The translations under genes and the position numbers were made by a program. 20,062 nt of DNA from a virus (taxonomy: Duplodnaviria > Heunggongvirae > Uroviricota > Caudoviricetes). The notes under the pieces are model-generated. The model did not search any database and was not told where the DNA came from. It saw only the letters and a program-made list of their open reading frames with translations. Shown here piece after piece: positions 5,882 through 20,062 of this stretch. Numbering within the stretch: the stretch's first letter is position 1; every line of letters starts with the position of its first letter. The DNA lies in IMG/VR virus record IMGVR_UViG_2778261543_000001; one strand, given 5' to 3'.

Positions 5882-7176
5882 TGGCATTAAATGAAGGTCA
5901 ACTGGTCACGTATGCTCTGGATGAAATCATCGAAACCGTCCAGAACCTGACGCCAATGGCGTCCAAAGTGACAAAATACACCCCTCCGGCAGAATCCATG
6001 CAACGTTCAAGCAACACCGTGTGGATGCCTGTTGAGCAGGAAGCGCCAACCCAGACTGGCTGGGATTTAACTGGCAACGCAACCGGGATTCTGGAACTCT
6101 CCGTGAAATGCAACATGGGCGATCCGGATAACGATTTCTTCGAGCTTCGTGCAGATGACCTGCGTGATGAGCGTTCTTACCGTCGCCGCATCCAGGCATC
6201 CGCCAAAAAACTGGCGAATAACATTGAGTCAGCGATTGCCAAACAGGCAACTGAAATGGGCTCGCTTGTTGTTCACGATACCCGAGCAATTGGTCCATCT
6301 ACTGGCCTGTCTGGCTGGGATTTTGTGTCTGATGCAGAGCGCCTGATGTTCTCCCGTGAGCTAAACCGCGATATGGGCATCAGTTACTTCCTGAACCCTG
6401 ACGATTACCGCAAAGCAGGCCGCAACCTGGTAGATGGTGACATCTTCGGGCGCGTTCCTGAAGAAGCGTATCGCAACGGTACTATTCAGCGTCAGATTGC
6501 TGGCTTTGATGAAATTCTTCGCTCACCGAAACTTCCGGCAGTTACCAAGTCAACCGCTACTGGTGTAACTGTTTCTGGTGCGCAGAAGTTTAAGCCGCAG
6601 GCATACACCCTTGATACCGATGGTAACAAAGAGAACGTCGACAACCGTGTTGCAACGGTGACCGTATCCTCCACCACCGGATTTAAGCGCGGCGACAAAA
6701 TCAGCTTCACTGGTGTGAAGTTCCTGTCTCAGATGGCGAAGAATGTGCTGACTGATGACGCGACTTTCTCAATCACCCGTGTGATCGATAGTACTCACAT
6801 CGAAATCACGCCGAAGCCGATTGCGCTGGATGACGCGTCACTGACAAAAGAAGAGAAGGCTTACGCGAATGTAAACACCTCTCTTGCTGATACCACACCG
6901 GTAAACGTTCTGAACGTGGCAACAACCACCGCTAACGTGTTCTGGGCTGATGACTCAATCCGCCTGCTGTCTCAGCCGATCCCGGTAACCCATGAACTGT
7001 TTGCTGGCATGAAAACGTCTTCCTTCAGCATTCCTGGTATTGGTGTTAACGGCATCTTCGCAACGCAGGGTGATATCAACACTCTGTCTGGTAAGTGCCG
7101 TATTGCTGTGTGGTATTCAGCATGTGCTGTACGACCAGAGGCAATTGGTGTTGGTCTGCCTAACCAGACCGCGTGA
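5881..7176 (+). CDS. 5: Major capsid (coat) protein, P22 gp5 family (431 aa), diverged from P22 itself
   Basis: 431 aa against 430 for P22 coat. N-terminus MALNEGQ..., the RADDLRDE motif and the C-terminal [13 protein letters not shown] agree with recalled P22 coat, but many internal substitutions are visible, so this is a different allele from the P22-identical terminase. Confidence 0.9.
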
Positions 7177-7184
7177 TAACCAGA

Positions 7185-7208
7185 GGGAGCTTCGGCTCCC
7201 TTTTCTAT
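7185..7208 (+). terminator. Rho-independent terminator or attenuator downstream of the coat gene
   Basis: GGGAGC-TTCG-GCTCCC hairpin (7185-7200) followed by TTTTCT, 9 nt after the coat stop codon. Confidence 0.6.
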
Positions 7209-7219
7209 TGGAGATACCA

Positions 7220-7825
7220 ATGAGCGTAATGATTTTTCAGGCTGGCGGAGATACCAAAATATGGGGACGCAAGCTGAAAACGAAAACCGTTGATCCTGAT
7301 GATGTAGCTGTGCACTTAGCAAATGGCTGGTATAAGCACCCTGACGATGTTCCTGATGATCCTCTTGTTGGTGATCAAATTGGGAGTGTTGGCGGAGGTG
7401 AAACTTCCCCAGTTGATATGGGCGAAGTGTCCGACGGTTATCACACTTTTAACGAGCTTTACGCTCACCGAGTGCGCCTCTTCTCATCGCTGATGCATGC
7501 TTACGCTGAGCTTTCGTGGTGGTCTCGCAAACACAGTGACGGTGAAGAGTGGGATGGCTGGATCATTGCTGGTATCACCACTCCAGAAGGCGAAATCACT
7601 TATCACCTACCTGTTGAAGAAATCGAGTTCCTTCCTGAAGGTACTGAGCTTGAGTTCGGGAAAGAGTGGGATGGTCATGAAGCAAATGATGTTCTTGGAC
7701 GACTCCTGAGTTTGCGTCCGGCTATTGCAGAGCCAGAGCCAGAGCCAGAGCCAGAAGAAAAACAGCGTAAAAAGCCTAGTCGAAAACCTAAGGCGGCAGC
7801 AGATGAACCTGACAACGAAGGGTGA
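7220..7825 (+). CDS. Acidic hypothetical protein (201 aa) with an (EP)4 repeat and a Lys/Arg-rich tail, inserted between coat and gp4
   Basis: ATG at 7220 with a GGAGA site 5 nt upstream. The ORF track begins this frame at 7040 inside the coat gene, but 7220 is the first start after the coat terminator. Protein is Asp/Glu-rich and ends ...[22 protein letters not shown].... Its 3' end overlaps the gp4 start by 23 nt. P22 has no gene here as far as I recall. Confidence 0.6.
7729..7752. repeat. Perfect tandem hexanucleotide repeat (AGAGCC)x4
   Basis: Read directly at 7729-7752. Encodes EPEPEPEP in the 7220 frame. The WLWLWLWL and GSGSGSGS stretches in antisense and alternate-frame ORFs are artefacts of this repeat. 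Confidence 0.95.
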
Positions 7826-8303: not shown

Positions 8304-9722
8304 ATGCCGATTCAGCAACTTCCGCTTATGAAAGGTGTCGGCAAAGACTTTCGAAACGCCGACTATATCGACTATCTGCCAGTGAATATGTTGGCTACAC
8401 CCAAAGAAATCCTTAACAGCAGCGGATATCTTCGCTCATTCCCGGGCATTGCCAAACGTTCCGACGTGAACGGTGTATCGCGCGGCGTCGAGTACAACAT
8501 GGCGCAGAATGCTGTTTATCGCGTGTGTGGCGGCAAGCTCTACAAAGGCGAAAGCGAAGTCGGTGACGTCGCCGGAAGTGGTCGTGTATCAATGGCGCAT
8601 GGTCGGACATCACAGGCAGTAGGCGTTAATGGTCAACTGGTCGAGTATCGCTATGATGGCACGGTTAAAACCGTCTCAAACTGGCCTACAGACAGCGGAT
8701 TCACGCAGTATGAGTTAGGTTCAGTCCGCGACATTACGCGCTTACGTGGGCGTTATGCGTGGTCAAAAGACGGCACTGATTCATGGTTTATCACTGACCT
8801 TGAAGACGAATCGCATCCTGACCGCTACAGCGCACAATATCGTGCTGAGTCTCAGCCTGACGGCATCATCGGCATCGGAACATGGCGAGACTTCATCGTC
8901 TGCTTTGGTTCATCGACGATTGAATATTTCTCCCTGACTGGCGCAACAACTGTTGGTGCTGCTTTGTATGTCGCACAGCCATCACTGATGGTGCAGAAAG
9001 GCATTGCCGGAACTTACTGCAAAACGCCATTCGCTGATTCGTATGCGTTTATCAGCAATCCGGCAACGGGTGCGCCGTCTGTATACATCATCGGATCCGG
9101 TCAGGTGTCACCAATCGCCAGCGCGAGCATTGAGAAAATTCTCCGCTCCTACACTGCTGATGAACTGGCTGATGGTGTGATGGAGTCTCTGCGATTTGAT
9201 GCGCATGAGCTGCTGATTATCCATCTTCCGCGCCATGTTCTGGTGTACGACGCATCTTCAAGCGCCAATGGTCCGCAATGGTGTGTACTGAAAACAGGCC
9301 TGTATGACGATGTGTATCGCGCTATCGACTTCATTTACGAAGGCAATCAGATAACGTGCGGCGATAAGCTGGAATCCGTGACCGGGAAATTGCAATTCGA
9401 TATCAGCAGCCAGTACGACAAGCAACAGGAACATCTGCTGTTTACTCCACTCTTCAAAGCAGATAACGCCAGAGTTTTCGACCTTGAGGTTGAATCGTCA
9501 ACTGGCGTTGCGCAGTACGCTGACCGCCTGTTCCTCTCTGCAACCACTGACGGCATCAATTACGGGCGTGAGCAGATGATTGAGCAGAATGAACCGTTCG
9601 TTTACGACAAACGCGTTTTGTGGAAGAAAGTAGGGCGCATCAGGAAAAACATTGGCTTCAAATTGCGCGTTATCACTAAGTCACCTGTCACTCTGTCTGG
9701 CTGCCAGATAAGGATTGAGTAA
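8304..9722 (+). CDS. 10: Tail hub / head-completion protein, P22 gp10 type (472 aa)
   Basis: 472 aa, the same as P22 gp10; it follows gp4 directly (TAA then ATG) with a GGGAG site. Assigned by size and conserved order. Confidence 0.85.
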
Positions 9723-10570
9723 TGGCTGATTCGAATCTTAATGTGCCGGTAATCATTCAGGCTACACGACTCGACACATCAGTCCTTCCGCGTAATATCT
9801 TCTCGCAGTCGTATCTGCTTTACGTTATCGCACAGGGAACTGATGTTGGTAACGTGGCTAACAAAGCCAACGAGGCCGGACAGGGCGCTTATGATGCACA
9901 GGTCAGGAACGATGAGCAGGATGTGATTCTGGTCGATCACGAAATTCGACTGGCATCGGCTGAAGCGAAGATACAGGACCACGAAACAAGGATCACTAAC
10001 GCAGAAGCGGCGATAGTCGGCCTTGATTCACGATTAACGACAGCAGAAAACGATATTGATTATCTGACTGATGAAGTTATCGCCATTCAAAACACGCTTT
10101 CAGACCATGAAACGCGCATCGATGCTCTGGAGTATGCCACTACTCGCAAGAAGTCAGAGGTTGTTTACTCTGGCGTATCTGTAACCATCCCGACAGCGCC
10201 GACCAACCTTGTTAGCCTGCTGAAAACGCTCACGCCGTCATCTGGCTCGTTGGCACCATTCTTCGACACTGTTAACAACAAGATGGTTGTGTTCAACGAG
10301 AACAAAACCTTGTTCTTCAAGCTGTCGATCGTCGGGACGTGGCCCAGCGGAACCGCCAACAGGTCAATGCAGCTAACCTTTTCCGGCTCTGTTCCTGACA
10401 CGTTGGTCAGCAGTCGTAATGCAGCGACAACAACCGATAACATCCTGTTAGCTACGTTCTTCAGCGTGGATAAAGACGGCTTTCTTGCCACAAATGGCAG
10501 CACGTTAACCATTCAGTCGAATGGTGCGGCGTTTACTGCCACAACCATCAAGATAATCGCGGAGCAGTAA
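9722..10570 (+). CDS. 26: Tail needle (cell-puncturing plug), P22 gp26 family, 282 aa with a C-terminal extension
   Basis: N-terminus [43 protein letters not shown]... matches the recalled gp10-binding N-terminal domain of P22 gp26. The centre carries repeated DHE(I/T)R heptad-type coiled-coil motifs. At 282 aa it is longer than P22's 233 aa, and the extra C-terminal part is Ser/Thr/Asn-rich, as in the knobbed needles of Sf6/HK620-type phages. Confidence 0.9.
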
Positions 10571-11025
10571 TGATTCAGTTCAAACCAACGCGAAACATCG
10601 ACCTGATAGAAGCAGTCGGAAATCACCCTGACATCATCGCCGGGAGCAACAACGGTGATGGATACGACTACAAACCTGATTGCCGTTACTTTGAGGTGAA
10701 CGTGCACGGTCAGTTTGGCGGCATTGTTTACTATCAGGAGATTCAGCCGCTGACATTCGATTGCCACGCCATGTACCTGCCAGAGATTCGCGGATTCAGC
10801 AAGGAAATCGGGCTGGCGTTCTGGCGATACATTCTGACTAACACCACCGTTCAGTGCGTCACATCGTTCGCCGCACGCAAATTCCGCCACGGGCAGATTT
10901 ACTGCGCAATGATTGGCCTTAAGCGTGTCGGAACCATCAAGAAATACTTCAAAGGCGTGGATGACGTGACTTTTTACAGCGCCACACGCGAAGAACTAAT
11001 CGACTTCCTGAATCACGGGAGATAG
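10570..11025 (+). CDS. Protein in the P22 gene-14 position (151 aa); probable assembly or ejection-associated protein
   Basis: Start overlaps the gp26 stop (TAATG) with a GGAG site. It occupies the slot between tail needle and gp7 that gene 14 fills in P22. I do not recognise the sequence, so the call is positional only. Confidence 0.45.
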   Translation: MIQFKPTRNIDLIEAVGNHPDIIAGSNNGDGYDYKPDCRYFEVNVHGQFGGIVYYQEIQPLTFDCHAMYLPEIRGFSKEIGLAFWRYILTNTTVQCVTSFAARKFRHGQIYCAMIGLKRVGTIKKYFKGVDDVTFYSATREELIDFLNHGR

Positions 11026-11729: not shown

Positions 11730-13136
11730 ATGGCTACTTGGCAAGGATCAAATGGCGGATTGTTAGCTGGTATCGGCGGCGTCAACTCAAACGCTCCGAG
11801 CGTAAATGACATCGGCAATACGCTTCAGCTTATCAGGCAGAACAATGATATTGAGCGTTCAGGCGCTAACAATGTTGGGCTGACTGCTTTGCAAGGTCTT
11901 TCAGGTATTGCAGGGGTGTTTCAGCAGGAAAAGCAGGCTCAGCGGCAGAAAGAATTTCAGCAGGCGTACGCTAATGCTTATGCGTCTGGTGATCGCGGTG
12001 CTTTGCGTCAGTTGGCTACTCAATATCCAGACCAGATTGAATCCGTTCGTAAAGGCATGGGATTCATTGATGAAGACCAGCGCAATTCTATCGGCACCTT
12101 AGCGGCTGGCGCACGCCTTGCGGCCTCGTCTCCAGAAGCAATGCAATCATGGCTGCAAAACAACGCCAATGAGCTGGCGCGCGTCGGTGTTGACCCTAAT
12201 AACGTTGCTCAGATGTATCAGCAGAATCCTTCAGGATTTGGTGAGTTTGTTGATCACCTTGGGATGGCTGCTCTTGGTCCGATTGATTACTTCAATGTTC
12301 AGGACAAGATGGCAGGTCGTGAGATTGACCGAGGCAGGCTGGCAGAGACAATCCGCAGCAATCAGGCTGGTGAAGCACTTCAGGCGAGAGGGCAAAACCT
12401 TTCCTATCAGTCAGCAATGACTGGGCACAATATCGCAGCACAACGCTTGGCTCTGGATCAGCAAGAGTTCGGGTTTAAGATGCAGCAAGCGCAGGAAAAG
12501 GCTCAGCAGTTGATTAGCGAAGCACCTAAGCTGTCAGTAAACATGGAAAAAGGCATCGAGACGGCTGTAAACAATGCCACAGCATCATCAAACTCAGCCA
12601 ATTCCATGAGTGCGCTTGCTCAACAGTTCAGAGCAGAAAAACCAACGACCGGTTTGTTCGGTAACGCACAGAACATGTTCGCAAAACTTACCGGAAGCGA
12701 TACGACATTGCGTGATTTGCGCATTCGCCAAAATGCCCTTGTTAACAGTCAGGTTCTTAAATTCCTACCTCCCGGCCCAGCAACGGATAAAGACGTTGAG
12801 ATTGTTCGACAGGGTGCGCCAACTGACATGGATAACCCTGAGACGGTCGCAAGATGGCTTGATGCAATGGCAAACCTTGAGCGACGAAACGCGCAGTTTA
12901 ATGAGTTTAAAGCTGAGTGGATGAGCGCGAATGGCAACCCTGGACAATCGCGTAATGGCGGTCAGATATTGGGGTTGGATGTTAAAAAAGGTGAATCATT
13001 GGGGAGTGCCGTTAAGCGGTATATGTCAATGAATACTGACGCAGCGCCAGCACAAGATTCGACACCTTCAGGAGAACCACGGAATCAGGTTGGATCATAT
13101 ACCTCAAAATCAGGCATTCAATTTACGGTGGAATGA
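11730..13136 (+). CDS. 20: Ejection protein, P22 gp20 type (468 aa)
   Basis: 468 aa (P22 gp20 about 471 aa), in the conserved 7-20-16 order, with an AAGGGG site. Its stop overlaps the gp16 start. Confidence 0.7.
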
Positions 13137-14977
13137 TGAAAGTAACTGCAAACGGTAAGACATTTACCTTTCCTGATGGTACGAGCACCGAAGATATTGG
13201 CACCGCCATTGATGAGTATTTTGCTGGTCAGGCTGTTCAGCAACAAACAGTTAATCAGGCCAATAATGCACCAACACGGGAAGAACCATCATTGATGCAA
13301 CAAGCTGGCGATTGGCTCACTGGTGGTCAAAGTGCAGGGCAAATTGCGGAACAGGCTGGTCGTGGTCTGGTAAACATACCATTTGACGTATTGCAGGGCG
13401 GCGCAAGTCTGATTAATGCAATCAGTCAGGGGCTTGGTGGACCCAAGGTTTTGGATGATGTTTATCGTCCAGTAGACAGACCGACAGACCCCTACGCTCA
13501 AGCTGGAGAAACAATTGGCGGGTATTTAGTTCCAGGAGTTGGAACGGCAGGAAGCATGGCTATTGGATCACTGGCAGAGGCCGCAAATCAGAAAGGTGAT
13601 TTCGCACAAAATGCAGCTAAAAATGCCGGAGTTAACCTTGCCGCTCAGGGTGTTCTTTCCGCAGCAGCAAAGGGAATAGGGCGTGGAATAACGGCTATAA
13701 AAGGTGATATTGCGCCAGAAGTGGCAAAGAAAATTGCCACATCAGAATCGATGGGCGTGACACCAATGACATCTGATGTTATCCCGCCGAAAAATGCTTT
13801 CACTCGCGGACTTACTCAGGATGCTGAGGGGGCTTTGCTCGGGACAGGCTCAAAGCGAGCGGAGCAATATGCAACGCGTAGTAAGCTGGTAAGCAATTAT
13901 TTTGACCGTTTTGGTGAGTACAACCCTGATGATGTGGTGAAATCTCTGACCACCACGTTAAGGGGACGGAAGGATGCCGCTGGCGCTGTTATCAATGACG
14001 TCACCAATAAAATGGGTAATGCCGCAGTTGATACCACAAATACCATGAATGCTCTGAATACAGCGATCGCAAGACAGGAACGGCTTGGGACGTCTGCCAA
14101 TCAAAGCCTGCTTACATCCTTGCGTAACCTACGTGAAGAATTAGCAAACCCTGCAACTGATTTGGATGTTACGTTTGATCTCTTGCGTCAGCACAGAACA
14201 GCATTTAGATCTAATGTTCAGGGAGATGCTATGGTCTTCCCCAACCAGGCAAAAGCAGCTACCAATATGGTAGAGAATGCAATGTCAAAAGACCTTCGTA
14301 ACGCAGTTGCAAAAAACCTCGGTGCATCAGACGCAGCAAAATACCTTAAAGCAAATTCCGATTATGCAAACGTTTATAATAAGGTTCTTAATAAAAACAT
14401 TGCTAACAAGCTCAACAAGGCAAGCAGTGAAGCCAGTCCTGAACTTATAAATACCGTTGTATTAAGCAGAAAACCATCTGACGTGAAACGAATCTGGAGC
14501 GCACTGGATGATAAAGGGAAAGATGCTATGCGTGCAGCTTACGTCAGCAAAATAGCGGAAAAGGCCGGTGACTCTCCAGCCAAGTTCATCACTGAAGTTA
14601 ATAAGCTGAAATCTCAGTCAGGTGGTGAAATTTACAACACTATTTTTTCTGGAAAGCACATGAAAGAGCTTGATGCTCTTCATGAAGTTCTACAGCAAAC
14701 AGCAAGGTCAGACACCGCAAATGTAGTAACTCAGACGGGGCAATCGCAAGCCAACAGGATAAGGACGATTGGCGCAACTGCGACTCTTGGCGTATCAATG
14801 GGGCTTGAGGCTGGTTTCGGTGCAATGATGCGCTTGTATGAATCCAAAGCAGCAAGGAATGCGCTCTTACGTCTGGCAAACACCAAAGCTGGAACGCCAG
14901 CTTATGAAAGAGCGCTAAATAATGCTGCAAATGCGATACGTCCTATACTTTCAAGCCAAATTACAGCAGAACAATAG
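13133..14977 (+). CDS. 16: Ejection protein, P22 gp16 type (614 aa)
   Basis: 614 aa (P22 gp16 about 609 aa). It is the last gene of the 7-20-16 block and starts in the ATGATG at 13133-13138, which contains the gp20 stop (TGA, 13134-13136). Confidence 0.7.
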
Positions 14978-15026
14978 ATAAATAATTAACTAAGCACATA
15001 ACTACTGACAGATAACCAACGCAACG

Positions 15027-15050
15027 ACCCAGCTTCGGCTGGTTTTTTTA
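15027..15050 (+). terminator. Rho-independent terminator between gp16 and the tailspike gene
   Basis: CCAGC-TTCG-GCTGG hairpin (15029-15042) followed by a run of seven T, about 50 nt after the gp16 stop. Confidence 0.6.
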
Positions 15051-15107
15051 TGCCCAAAATTCACCGTAGCCACGCTGCGGCGTTTCCTTGTATCTGGAGC
15101 AAATTAA

Positions 15108-17057
15108 ATGACAGACATTACAGCCAATGTTGTAATTGGGATGCCTTCGCAACTCTTCACTATGGCTCGTTCTTTTAAAGCCGTAGCCAATGGCAAAATT
15201 TATATCGGTAAAATTGACACTGACCCGGTAAATCCTGAAAACCAGATTCCGGTTTATATAGAGAACGAAGACGGTTCTCACGTTCCTGTTTCGCAACCAA
15301 TTATCATTAACGCTGCTGGTTATCCTGTATATAACGGGCAGATTGCCAAGTTCGTAACTGTGCAAGGCCATTCTATGGCTGTTTATGATGCATACGGTGC
15401 TCAGCAGTTTTATTTTCCGAATGTTCTGAAGTACGATCCTGACAGATTGCGACAGGATTTAGCGCTTCCAACAGGCGCTGAGCTTGTAGGCGTGCAACCA
15501 CAAGGAAATCTTTCGCAAGTCATTCAGTTTGTATCTCCAGAGCAGTTTGGCGCCATCGGAGATGGTACGGTTCATCCATTATCTGAGCGTTATGCGACTC
15601 TTGCAGCAGCGCAGGCTGTATACCCATTCGTAACATCTCTGACCCAGACAATTGACTGGGCAGCGTGTCAGGCGGCTGAGAACTATGCGCGTGGTAAAAC
15701 AGCGGTAAGATGCCCTTTCTACGCCAAGTATCATCTTGGCAACAATTATCTTGAGCTAAGCGAGAAAAGTAAATGGTATGGCAATGACAATCCCACTATA
15801 GATCGCCCATGCACCACTATCATACGAGAGGGAAATGCTGGCAGCTTCGGAAGAAATGCAATCGTCCGCGTTATGAGCTCTAGCGAAGCAGGAAGTTCGG
15901 ATGAATTTGTTCGCGGAGTCGTTTTCAAAGGTTTCTATTTATCTAGAAACCGCCCTCGTCGATTTAACAGCAAGTATGAAGGGTCAATAGGCTTTCATGT
16001 TAACTTTGCAATTAGAGCAGATATCGACGTGGCAATAAGCGGCTGTGAATATGGCCTTTTTGGCTATGGGTGCTGGGGACTGGTTGGTAGGGTTCGCGTG
16101 GATTCATGCCATAAATCTATTTGGCTGGATCCTGACACCGCAACTCCAGAGCATACCAACCCAGGCGGTTCAATAACGGCTCTTGATTTACGCGTAGAGG
16201 TGGATGCATGCGTCTACGGACCAGTGCTTCGACATGTGCAATATAGTAGAATTTCTGGATGGGTCGAAGGAATGCTTATTGATTCCGCAGTATACCCAAT
16301 CTATGACTACACCAACGAAACAGCTATAGCTATTACGGCATATGGATGCGATGGTTTAGATATAGAAAATCTAGGAATTGAAGCCTGGCAGGGAGTGATG
16401 GTTTACGCCAATTCCAGTACAGTATCCACTGGGATAAAATGGAATCAAGGAGCATTACTAACAAATACAACCGGTAAACACGGGCCATACCAGGCCATGG
16501 CAGCACTTACTGGCGCAACAGAATTGTTCACTTTACCATCGACTAACAACTCATATTTCTATGCAAAAAGTGGAGGCCTACTTAAGTTAAGAAATATGAC
16601 AGGAGATATGTCGACCGCTTCTTTCGCAAATACATTCCTTGTTACGGTTGATGCTGACTCTCGATTCTTAATGGAGAATACTGGCATTTACTTTGGAAGT
16701 AGTCGACTAATTGCCCCCGGCAATTGGGAGAATATTGAATTTATCAACGATAGATTCATGCAGAACTATATGGTGCCAGCTGGGTACTCATATGAAGGAC
16801 GCGGTATTTGTACTGCTAGCGCATGGTCAAACAAGACGATAAATGCCGGCGATGGTAGGGTTACACTTGATGCCCCTACTGGGTGGAAAATTATTGATTT
16901 TGTGGCCTACGTAATAACAAGCACCATATCACAAACTAGAAGCTACTCTCCTGTAGGAGTTGTATCCACATCAGATACGCGGATTATTCTGCAGACTGGT
17001 GTGGACACTACAGGTTTTTCTGTAACCTACAAACTAAGACTAAAGGTAATAAAGTAG
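15108..17057 (+). CDS. 9: Tailspike protein (649 aa): P22 gp9-like N-terminal head-binding domain fused to an unrecognised receptor-binding domain
   Basis: The first ~110 aa ([11 protein letters not shown]...[36 protein letters not shown]...[12 protein letters not shown]) match the recalled P22 gp9 head-binding domain. The rest has no resemblance to the P22 endorhamnosidase domain, though its Gly/Asn/Ser/Thr-rich repetitive composition would suit a beta-helix fold. TGGAG site upstream. Confidence 0.9.
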
Positions 17058-17061
17058 AGTG

Positions 17062-17086
17062 AAAGCCCCTTACGGGGCTTTTTTAT
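17062..17086. terminator. Terminator hairpin between the convergent tailspike and gtrC-like genes
   Basis: AAAGCCCC-TTAC-GGGGCTTT hairpin (17062-17081) with a T-run to 17086, 5 nt after the tailspike stop and overlapping the stop of the - strand gene. The T-tract follows only on the + strand, so termination of the minus-strand gtr transcript is less certain. Confidence 0.6.
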
Positions 17087-18603
17087 ATGCCTGTTTTTAT
17101 TCTGTGGTTGTAAACCATTATTATCATGCCATTGTAACTTAGAACTTCATCAGGACTGCCAATAGTAGCCTCGACTCCTTTCCTACATAAATCTATGTCT
17201 GCGCACTGATCTCCAGTATTGCCCTTCCTTAAAGCTATGAACTGTCGTTCAGGTTTTGATTCTACAAATTCATTTGTGTGCCAAAACTTCATTGTTTGAA
17301 CGCGGGCATCCTTGAAGTTGATAACCCCTGTTTTTTTATGAAAGTAAACAGGGGTTATATGTATGTCTCCGCCAGACAGCCAATTCACGCCCATAGACAT
17401 CCCCCAAAAACTACCATATCCGTAAGTAAGATCATGATGCTTAAGGAAGTCTATATATGAATTGACAGGGTTATCGTTAAGCTTGTAGCGAATATTCATT
17501 AATGAGTAGCCATAAATGCACGTAGCAAAACTTAACAGCAAAGGAATTACTAATAATATAGCTCGTTTAGAAGATGCTGCTACTGACAATAGCACGATCA
17601 CCATTGGGGCAATATTAAGATAAAATCTTTGATGGGGAGTTTGATCACCTATTATTGAAGATGAGTATATTCCTGCTATAGACATGATTGAAAATATTGC
17701 AATGTAGCGAGCCGCACCGCCTCGCTTTATGCATATGAACACGGCATATAAGCATGTAATAGACCATGTAAAAAATATTGCATACCTGAAATACTCGTTG
17801 CCTATATTCGTTATTGGCAACATCTTGGCTGTGATATCAACAGCAAGCCTGGCATTATCAAGCATAACATCAAAAGGTGCCAAGTGGAAAGAGTGAACAG
17901 GAAGACCTATAATCTTTTGAATTACATTTGAGAAAGCCAATGCAAAAAACACAAAGTATATAATGAAATTTCTTTTTGTGGTTTTCTCAAAAACGATGAT
18001 AGCACACTCAGTAATTATCATTGGTAGGAAAAAAGCCGCCAGAAGCCATGGATCAGACGCGCTCGCTAGCAGCGAAATCAAAGAGCATACAAACGGTATA
18101 AATATGTTTTTGCTTTTTAAGCTTAACACAAACAAAGAAAAAACTACGAACCCATACGCATTAGTAGAGTTATGCGAAAATGGGTGTGAGAAATAACCGT
18201 GTCTGTATAGGTCTGGAGAAACAAATGTTATGCATATTAAAGCAATTAAAGCTAGATAGTTACCTGAACATGACCTAACCATTTCTGTTACGCATGCTGT
18301 GATAACAAAAATAAATATTGCGCTTGATATCACTAATGGCAACAGACCATCATCACCGAGCAGTAAAAACAAAGCAAAGTTTACTGGATAAACTGTAAAA
18401 TACCAGTTATCAAATGTTGGTTGCCATTGAGTAAAAGAACTCCATCCACTGTCCAGGAATGCCCTCCAAACTATTGGGCTATTGGCGGCATCTGCATCCC
18501 CTGACCATAAGTAGCTGTGTCGCGATGTAAGATAAAGAGACACGCAAAAAGATGCGAGATATAAAAAACACCAAAAAGCTCTGCTATCAGATATCCTATT
18601 CAT
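17083..18603 (-). CDS. GtrC-like serotype-specific O-antigen glucosyltransferase (polytopic inner-membrane protein, 506 aa); specificity unknown
   Basis: Third gene of a gtrA-gtrB-gtrX arrangement, with its start overlapping the gtrB stop (ATGA). The protein is very hydrophobic with many predicted membrane spans and a ~130-aa hydrophilic C-terminal domain. AT-rich codon usage. I do not recognise it as a specific named Gtr type. Confidence 0.7.
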
Positions 18604-19523
18604 GATTTACTAACACCCTTTAATATATAACGAGGCCTATTTTTGGACTCAACATATATCCTGCCAATGTACTCACCAAGAACGCCAATGCCAATCAATT
18701 GAACCCCGCCAAGGAACAGAATAGAGACAAGCAGGGATGGATATCCACGCACAGCATTGCCGAAGGCCAGTGTGTCGATAATCATCCAAGCACCGTACAG
18801 AAACGCCACTCCAGCTACGAACAGGCCAATGTAAGTCCACATGCGCAACGGGAAAGTAGAGAAGCTTGTGATCCCCTCAAGTGCCAGGTTCCACAGTTTC
18901 CATCCATTAAATTTAGTACTGCCTGCCACTCGTTCTGCGCGTGCATACTCGACAACATCTGTGCGACCGCCAACCCAACTCAGCACACCTTTCATAAAAA
19001 GGTTGCGCTCTGGCATAAGCTTAATGTTTTCGACAACTTCACGGCTCATTAACCGGAAATCGCCAACGTTTTCTTCTATCTTTGGGTTGCTGATTTTGTT
19101 ATGAAGCTTATAGAACCACTCAGCAGATTTACGTTTTAGTCGGCTGTCAGTTGAGCGATCAGAGCGCTTAGCAAGAACCATATCCGCGCCGGCCTGCCAC
19201 TTCTCAATAAGATGAGGGATGACTTCAATCGGGTCCTGCAGGTCAACGTCAATTGGAATTACAGCCTCTCCGGTTGCATGTTCTAACCCTGCAAACAATG
19301 CTGGTTCTTTACCAAAGTTGCGTGTAAATGACAGTGGAACAACCAGCGGGTCTGAAACAGCCAGAGCATTAATAATTGACTCCGTAGCGTCTTTACTTCC
19401 GTCATTTATGAATACAATTTCCACTTCATATGGCTTCAACTCTTCGAATTCACGTACCGTTTTATAGAAAATTGGTATCGCTTCTTCTTCATTGAGGACA
19501 GGAACAACCAGAGATATCTTCAT
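18600..19523 (-). CDS. gtrB: Bactoprenol glucosyltransferase GtrB (GT2 family, 307 aa)
   Basis: N-terminal GT2 fold signature ([14 protein letters not shown]...INDGSKD...) with a DxD-type motif (PIDVDLQDP) and two C-terminal hydrophobic helices, as in GtrB. Flanked by gtrA and the gtrC-like gene with ATGA overlaps. Confidence 0.9.
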
Positions 19524-19882
19524 TTCGCATTCCTAAAGACAATGAGCTTTGAATAGACGAAACCGCACACCAGGCTGATGGCGGAGAAAGTGATAAGGGT
19601 GACCATTGGAGGAAGTGCACATCTATCAGCAGCCCATCCAATAGTTGCACTCAGTGTTCCCATGAACCCGACATATAACATGTAGCGCATCGTTGTAGTT
19701 GATGCTTTGAATGTGAATTTTGCATTCGCGAAGAAGCTAAAACTCACAGCCACAACAAAACCTGCGAAGTTTGCCAGAGCCTGATTGGTATGCGCGGCAT
19801 AGATACATACACCAAAAACCACCCAGTGTATAAGTGTGTTCAGCACGCCAATCGAGGTGTACTTTGCAAATAGCTTTAACAT
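19520..19882 (-). CDS. gtrA: GtrA, small membrane protein (flippase for undecaprenyl-phosphate glucose), 120 aa
   Basis: 120 aa with four hydrophobic segments, first gene of the operon, typical GtrA size and position. Confidence 0.85.
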
Positions 19883-19920
19883 TTCTTCTATCAGCTAATA
19901 ATCAAAGGCATGAAGTCTAT

Positions 19921-20062
19921 TGGATTTGCCCCTATATTTCCAGACACCTGTTATCACTTAACCCATTACTGGCTTGCTGCCGTAGATATTCCCGTGGCGA
20001 GCGATAACCCAGTGCACTATGCGGATGCCATTCGTTATAATGCTCGAACGCCTCTGCAAGGT
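19921..20062 (-). mobile_element. IS2 insertion sequence, right terminal inverted repeat plus 3' end of the transposase gene; truncated by the window edge
   Basis: 19921-19961 (TGGATTTGCCCCTATATTTCCAGACACCTGTTATCACTTAA) matches the IS2 right inverted repeat as I recall it, with one mismatch. The adjoining minus-strand reading frame ends in a typical IS2 transposase C-terminus. Confidence 0.8.
19932..20062 (-). CDS. insD: IS2 transposase (orfB/InsD) C-terminal fragment; 5' part lies outside the window
   Basis: Minus-strand translation from the window edge reads ...[42 protein letters not shown], with the stop at 19932-19934. This is the conserved IS3-family integrase-fold C-terminus and matches the recalled IS2 InsD tail. 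Confidence 0.75.

Follow-up and report, generated by a model that had tools for sequence, protein, structure and literature searches.

The closest described relatives of the protein analyzed here are the tail needles of phages Sf6, HK620 and P22 and of the E. coli prophage HS1. The N-terminal domain of these needles plugs the tail hub/portal channel (PMC3741392, PMC9728967), and, according to the abstract of PMC3741392 and to PMC9400499, the needle extends past the tailspikes and makes the first contact with the cell surface. It is released at ejection, and the ejection proteins then build the DNA conduit (PMC3741392, PMC9728967, PMC9400499). The knobs of Sf6 and HS1 are TNF-like jellyroll trimers (HS1 knob paper, Leavitt et al. 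2013, PMC3741392), with one L-glutamate site per subunit interface and, at the distal tip, a site for phosphate (PMC3741392). In the Figure 2 legend and text of that paper, Sf6 residues E146, K200, S248, D250, L255 and K277 are given as the contacts of the buried L-glutamate, and an S-R-N triad (residues 231–233) is placed at the phosphate site. The published boundary of the Sf6 knob is residues 140–282. The knob was present in 69 of 164 P22-like genomes in the same survey, where the P22-like carriers were confined to phages of Escherichia and Shigella, with 0 of 48 from Salmonella (PMC3741392). More distant homologues were reported in T4-like and other phages, and the knob was regarded by Leavitt et al. 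(2013) as a recent arrival in the P22-like group (PMC3741392).

The window, that is, the whole stretch of 20,062 nucleotides of viral DNA that was analyzed, almost certainly carries the gene for a tail needle of the Sf6 type, from a P22-like (Lederbergvirus) phage or prophage; the protein, judging from its homologues, would form a trimer with a plug, a shaft and a jellyroll knob (Table 1). The 282-residue product comes from a single open reading frame in the list of ORFs. The ATG of the gene shares one base with the stop codon of the gp10 homologue that precedes it, and one base is likewise common to the gene's own stop codon and the ATG of the gp14 homologue that follows. The protein matches PHROG 1030 ('tail needle knob') over residues 1–282 and PHROG 1219 ('tail needle protein', E=3.7e-54) over residues 1–146. 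The latter match, the identity to P22 gp26 described below and the hits to needle structures in the PDB (residues 1–144) place the N-terminal part and the shaft in the gp26 family. Residues 3–64 match the N-terminal segment of P22 gp26 in the virion structure 8EAP (chain B) with an E-value of 1.8e-27. Two antisense ORFs on the minus strand, at 10165–10512 and 10513–10890, were rejected as genes because they lie wholly within strongly conserved virion genes of the plus strand and because no minus-strand gene is annotated in the needle region of the Sf6, Kapi1, HK620 and Gally records that were inspected.

The genomic neighborhood is that of a P22-type morphogenesis block. Upstream of the needle are found a small terminase (PF16677), a large terminase, a P22-type portal, a scaffold, a P22 coat, gp4 (PF11650) and gp10 (PF11134, Phage_stabilise). 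Downstream, the gp14 position is taken by a PF11039 (DUF2824) protein, followed by PF25688 (P22_gp7), PF16928 (Inj_translocase, at the gp20 position), an ORF of 614 codons at the gp16 position and the tailspike. The needle gene thus lies between gp10 and gp14, and the order gp10, needle, gp14, gp7, gp20 is that of Sf6, HK620 and P22. The 614-aa ORF at the position of the ejection protein gp16 has no Pfam or NCBIfam match, and its neighbors at the gp7 and gp20 positions match dedicated families. A search of NCBIfam gave no match for the needle, the tailspike or the 506-aa ORF at the GtrC position either. The gp16-position ORF ends only about 130 bp before the tailspike begins, and the immI region (sieA, mnt, arc, ant), which occupies this place in P22, is absent. 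An ORF with a WDGH domain (PF25311, residues 128–225) follows the coat gene and precedes the gp4 homologue; its true start is probably further downstream than the listed TTG, because that codon overlaps the end of the coat gene.

Table 1. Positions in the window of the needle gene, its domains and the other features discussed in the text.
Feature	Position	Strand	Basis
Tail needle gene	9722..10570	+	homologue of P22 gene 26 and Sf6 gene 9; PHROG 1030, E=8e-134
N-terminal domain, residues 1–72	9722..9937	+	71/72 identical to Sf6 gp9
Predicted trimeric coiled-coil shaft, residues 73–139	9938..10138	+	helix in AF2 model; aligns to P22/HK620 helical cores
Sf6-type tail needle knob, residues 140–282	10139..10567	+	PF16532, E=2.2e-108; identity to 3RWN/4K6B
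ORF with WDGH domain	7040..7825	+	PF25311
614-aa ORF, gp16 position	13133..14977	+	position
Interval between gp16-position ORF and tailspike	14977..15108		
Tailspike, 649 aa	15108..17057	+	head-binding domain
O-antigen modification (serotype-conversion) cassette	17083..19882	−	
GtrA	19520..19882	−	PF04138
GtrB (GT2)	18600..19523	−	PF00535
506-aa ORF, GtrC position	17083..18603	−	position
IS3-family insertion sequence terminus	19915..20062		98–99% matches in plasmid records

The best matches in the PDB to residues 131–282 are the two solved knobs, 3RWN of Sf6 gene 9 (E=1.2e-89; 149/152 residues identical) and 4K6B of HS1 (E=3.5e-89; 150/152). The Pfam family PF16532 (Phage_tail_NK, 'Sf6-type phage tail needle knob') is matched with 360 bits, the gathering cut-off being 27, and positions 2–175 of its 175-position profile are covered. 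The domain is an Sf6-type knob, an ordinary feature that has already been described. All nine residues named above for the glutamate and phosphate sites (E146, K200, S248, D250, L255, K277 and S231-R232-N233) are conserved at the corresponding positions here. Relative to Sf6, the knob carries the substitutions T176S, S234A and S270A; the second and third are present also in the needles of Kapi1 and Gally, and the third in HS1. At 98% identity to the solved structures, the present knob is expected to share their jellyroll fold, trimeric state and ligands. A single-sequence AF2 model of the 282-aa protein gives a mean pLDDT of 56.9, with the knob mostly below 50–70 and the strands between residues 145 and 281 of low confidence; because this confidence is too low, the model, though consistent with a helical shaft that leads into strands, gives no independent support for the fold.

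P22 gp26 has 233 residues, as has the HK620 needle, and the protein encoded here is 49 residues longer, close to the excess of about 50 residues given in the first-pass annotation. BLASTP against P22 gp26 yields an alignment that is limited to residues 1–137 (61% identity, E=2e-55), which bears out the earlier description of the N-terminal and coiled-coil parts as P22-like. Likewise, the P22 and HK620 needle structures in the PDB match residues 1–144 or 1–153 only. The last 140 residues (143–282), compared with residues 141–233 of P22 gp26, show no significant similarity by BLASTP (E=0.14), and homology to the P22-type tip, with its P22/HK620/epsilon34 subtypes A–C, was not found. The knob of about 143 residues substitutes for the P22 tip of 93 residues; this is a domain replacement and not an addition to a complete P22-type needle. 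The C-terminal region had been called an extension absent from P22: its absence from P22 holds, and the term extension does not, because the tip has been replaced.

The composition of the two halves agrees in part with what had been proposed. In residues 143–282, Ser accounts for 12.1%, Thr for 15.0% and Asn for 7.1% (34% summed), against 4.9%, 8.5% and 7.0% (about 20% summed) in residues 1–142, and Phe rises from 0.7% to 7.1%. The C-terminal enrichment is therefore one of Ser, Thr and Phe, and of the Ser/Thr/Asn richness that was first noticed only the Asn component is missing. The beta-type, globular character proposed for this region agrees with its 98% identity to the crystallized TNF-like jellyroll knobs 3RWN and 4K6B, and the continuous P22-like coiled coil without a globular domain, which had been named as the opposite outcome, was not found. 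As to its limits, the interval 10150–10570 that had been marked corresponds to residues 143–282 plus the stop codon; it begins four residues inside the knob boundary and, as position 10150 falls on the last base of a codon, out of frame.

A gapless comparison with Sf6 gp9 reveals a pronounced difference in the shaft. Identity amounts to 71/72 residues (98.6%) over 1–72, falls to 22/58 (37.9%) over 73–130 and returns to 149/152 (98.0%) over 131–282. At the nucleotide level, it is 88–100% over 9722–9931, about 50% over 9932–10111 and 87–100% from 10112 on. The low identity of the shaft between near-identical flanks indicates recombination within the coiled coil. Since the divergent segment (9932–10111) has the same length as in Sf6 and no indels, the heptad register of the shaft is kept. 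In the single-sequence AF2 model, residues 74–139 form a continuous helix, with pLDDT values of 84–92 at residues 81–130, and the segment lines up with the helical cores of the P22 and HK620 needles. The divergent sequence is partly HK620-like (DVDYLLDEVIDIQ versus the 13-letter HK620 counterpart). The mosaic shaft is the sole local peculiarity of the needle, and such variability has been described before, the shaft of HS1 being 67% identical to that of Sf6 and comprising 16 heptads rather than 11 (PMC3741392). Nor is the present variant unique, because E. coli prophages hold full-length needle matches at about 97%.

The needle gene is widespread. A megablast search against phage records found it at 92–97% identity in Kapi1, N7, Sf6, Louie, Gally, JEP4, vB_EcoP-720R6 and phiKp_30, and it is present over at least 80% of its length in 314 of 5,426 complete E. 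coli genomes, where the records listed annotate a 'tail needle knob protein'. The first-pass annotation had implied that the C-terminal region is unusual, which does not stand beside these 314 genomes, the 69 of 164 P22-like genomes of the 2013 survey or an Sf6 gp9 of equally 282 residues. The alignment that it proposed with the knobs of Sf6 and HK620 succeeds for the first phage, which is knobbed and 98% identical in this domain, and fails for the second, whose 233-residue needle has a P22-type tip and no knob. With the knob alone as the query (from position 10148), tblastn returned 287 phage records, 272 of them below 60% identity; these more distant matches come from phages of Salmonella, Escherichia, Klebsiella, Aeromonas, Dickeya, Edwardsiella and Citrobacter, including Cba120, SFP10 and RB43. 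Klebsiella phage phiKp_30 (LC768498.2, 13779–14627) carries a needle-knob gene that is 95% identical in nucleotides, in a host outside the Escherichia/Shigella-only range of 2013.

Taken together with the described systems, the three parts of the protein suggest the following course of events. Residues 1–72 would plug the tail channel and hold the DNA within the virion, residues 73–139 would form the coiled-coil shaft of the needle trimer, and residues 140–282 would fold at the far end into a jellyroll knob of the TNF-like type, in which the interfaces between subunits bury three L-glutamates. On infection, the needle would contact the outer membrane and then be released, after which the ejection proteins (homologues of gp7, gp20 and gp16, whose genes lie immediately downstream) would leave the virion together with the DNA. 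The knob may tune the kinetics of DNA delivery or act as a mechanical tip, and would not determine host specificity. A part in delivery kinetics is suggested by experiments with P22 chimeras: tip changes slow K+ efflux, and a needle tipped with a foldon works, yet K+ release is slower (PMC3741392). On the published evidence, modulation of delivery kinetics, or service as a mechanical tip, is the best-supported role for the knob.

A knob that determined host range by binding a specific secondary outer-membrane receptor, for example an Omp protein, would suit a tip that projects beyond the tailspikes and is first to reach the cell (abstract of PMC3741392; PMC9400499). The abstract of PMC3741392 also likens the TNF-like fold to that of the fibre knobs with which adenovirus and PRD1 bind their receptors, and the restriction of the knob to Escherichia and Shigella P22-like phages in 2013, with none among the 48 from Salmonella, suggests some host-linked selection. 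These points are outweighed by genetic results. P22 furnished with Sf6 codons 69–282, or with the HS1 knob alone, has normal titre and infectivity on Salmonella, mutants of the glutamate site behave normally in P22 on Salmonella (PMC3741392), and even the foldon serves as a tip. All mutations that expand the host range of Sf6 lie in the tailspike gp14, which also holds the OmpC-binding region (PMC9400499). Moreover, the knobs of P22-like phages diverge by no more than 4.9% in amino acids despite diverse hosts and serotypes (PMC3741392), unlike true receptor-binding proteins, and the needle of a Klebsiella phage record is 95% identical in nucleotides to the one described here. We therefore consider a receptor-binding knob unlikely; the suggestion that the tip, as the first part to touch the envelope, can matter for host range is contradicted by the P22 chimeras and the Sf6 tailspike mutants.

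The tailspike presents a different picture. Its head-binding domain (residues 1–119) alone matches solved tailspikes, namely those of Sf6 (gp14, 7SG7) and P22. For the receptor-binding body, solved structures offer no close relative, only weak matches of about 40–55 residues to the phage tailspikes 4RU4 and 4RU5 and to Phi92 gp150 (6E0V), and no match was found for it in the 5,426 complete E. coli genomes. In the present phage, this body, and not the needle, is likely the host-range determinant. An O-antigen modification cassette for serotype conversion is located downstream of the tailspike on the minus strand. It comprises GtrA, GtrB and, at the GtrC position, the 506-aa ORF, for which no Pfam or NCBIfam match was obtained. 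The DNA of this ORF appears to be absent from the complete E. coli genome set, because no more than 41% of the query 15000–20062 is covered in any of the 5,426 genomes. At its right edge, the window runs into one end of an insertion sequence of the IS3 family, immediately upstream of the gtrA-like gene. Matches to this end at 98–99% occur in 4,281 plasmid records, where the annotation reads 'IS3 family transposase', and the query that includes this end matches at up to 43 places per E. coli genome.

The IS3 end points to some insertion activity in the locus, and needle remnants have been noted in PMC3741392, so the gene might be a non-functional relic in a piece of a prophage that has decayed. 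The full-length needle ORF is intact, however, and lies in an uninterrupted, apparently complete morphogenesis block of intact ORFs and not in a remnant of a few genes, which makes decay very unlikely. Slightly less probable still is an adaptation to an unusual host or serotype, in which the Sf6 knob, the partly HK620-like shaft and the unmatched tailspike body and GtrC-position gene would belong together, and the knob, for example through the otherwise unseen T176S, would aid a native-host-specific step that the P22/Salmonella chimeras missed. That the C-terminal region is an undescribed extension or domain, distinct from the known needle tips, has virtually no chance of being correct, with only differences in length and composition from P22 gp26 in its favor, set against 98% identity to two crystallized knobs, a PF16532 score far above the cut-off and an Sf6 gp9 of equal length.

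An intact Sf6-type needle, with a knob that would act on DNA delivery, is accordingly the reading that we retain. Finding a knobbed needle of this type in a phage or prophage related to P22 amounts to a correct annotation and is of little consequence as such. It assigns the element to the Escherichia/Shigella-associated P22-like subgroup and is one more example of the modular exchange of tips and shafts already known for these needles. The action of the knob and its buried glutamates in native hosts concerns the family as a whole, and the present copy makes it no more accessible.

Among the named needles, Sf6 gp9 is alike in architecture, with the same length of 282 residues, a gapless alignment, all residues of the L-glutamate and phosphate sites and the order of the flanking genes in common; it differs in the shaft at residues 73–130 (38% in amino acids, about 50% in nucleotides) and in the three knob substitutions. 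The best match in the phage database is Escherichia phage vB_EcoP_Kapi1 (QOC59570.1), with 97.1% nucleotide identity over the aligned pieces. Its needle also has 282 residues and a knob region that is 98.7% identical to the present one, and its shaft is Sf6-like and only 38% identical over residues 73–130. The knob of the E. coli prophage HS1 (4K6B) shares with the present one 150 of 152 residues and the Ala at Sf6 position 270. The HS1 needle is nevertheless 317 residues long, with 16 shaft heptads versus 11 in Sf6 and P22, and the Gally needle is likewise of the long 317-aa form, whereas the present protein has a short shaft of Sf6 length.

The needles of P22 and HK620 stand further apart. 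For P22 gp26 (in the structure set 2POH, 3C9I and 5BU5, together with HK620), the plug and the shaft are homologous over residues 1–137, and the HK620 needle, the type member of subtype A of the P22-type tip (PMC3741392), is 66% identical over residues 1–148. The place in the virion and in the gene order is common to all three needles; the C-terminal 93 residues of the two 233-residue proteins, which form the P22-type tip, show no sequence relationship with the knob. The reverse holds for the knobs outside the P22-like phages, in Cba120, SFP10, RB43 and phages of Aeromonas, Dickeya, Edwardsiella and Klebsiella, which share the C-terminal PF16532-type domain (31–56% identity over about 126–140 residues, in 272 phage records) and carry it on other N-terminal parts or on none, in large myoviruses and other phages. 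The residues that contact the glutamate are reported to be kept in 21 knob homologues outside the P22-like phages (PMC3741392), and they are kept in the needle described here.
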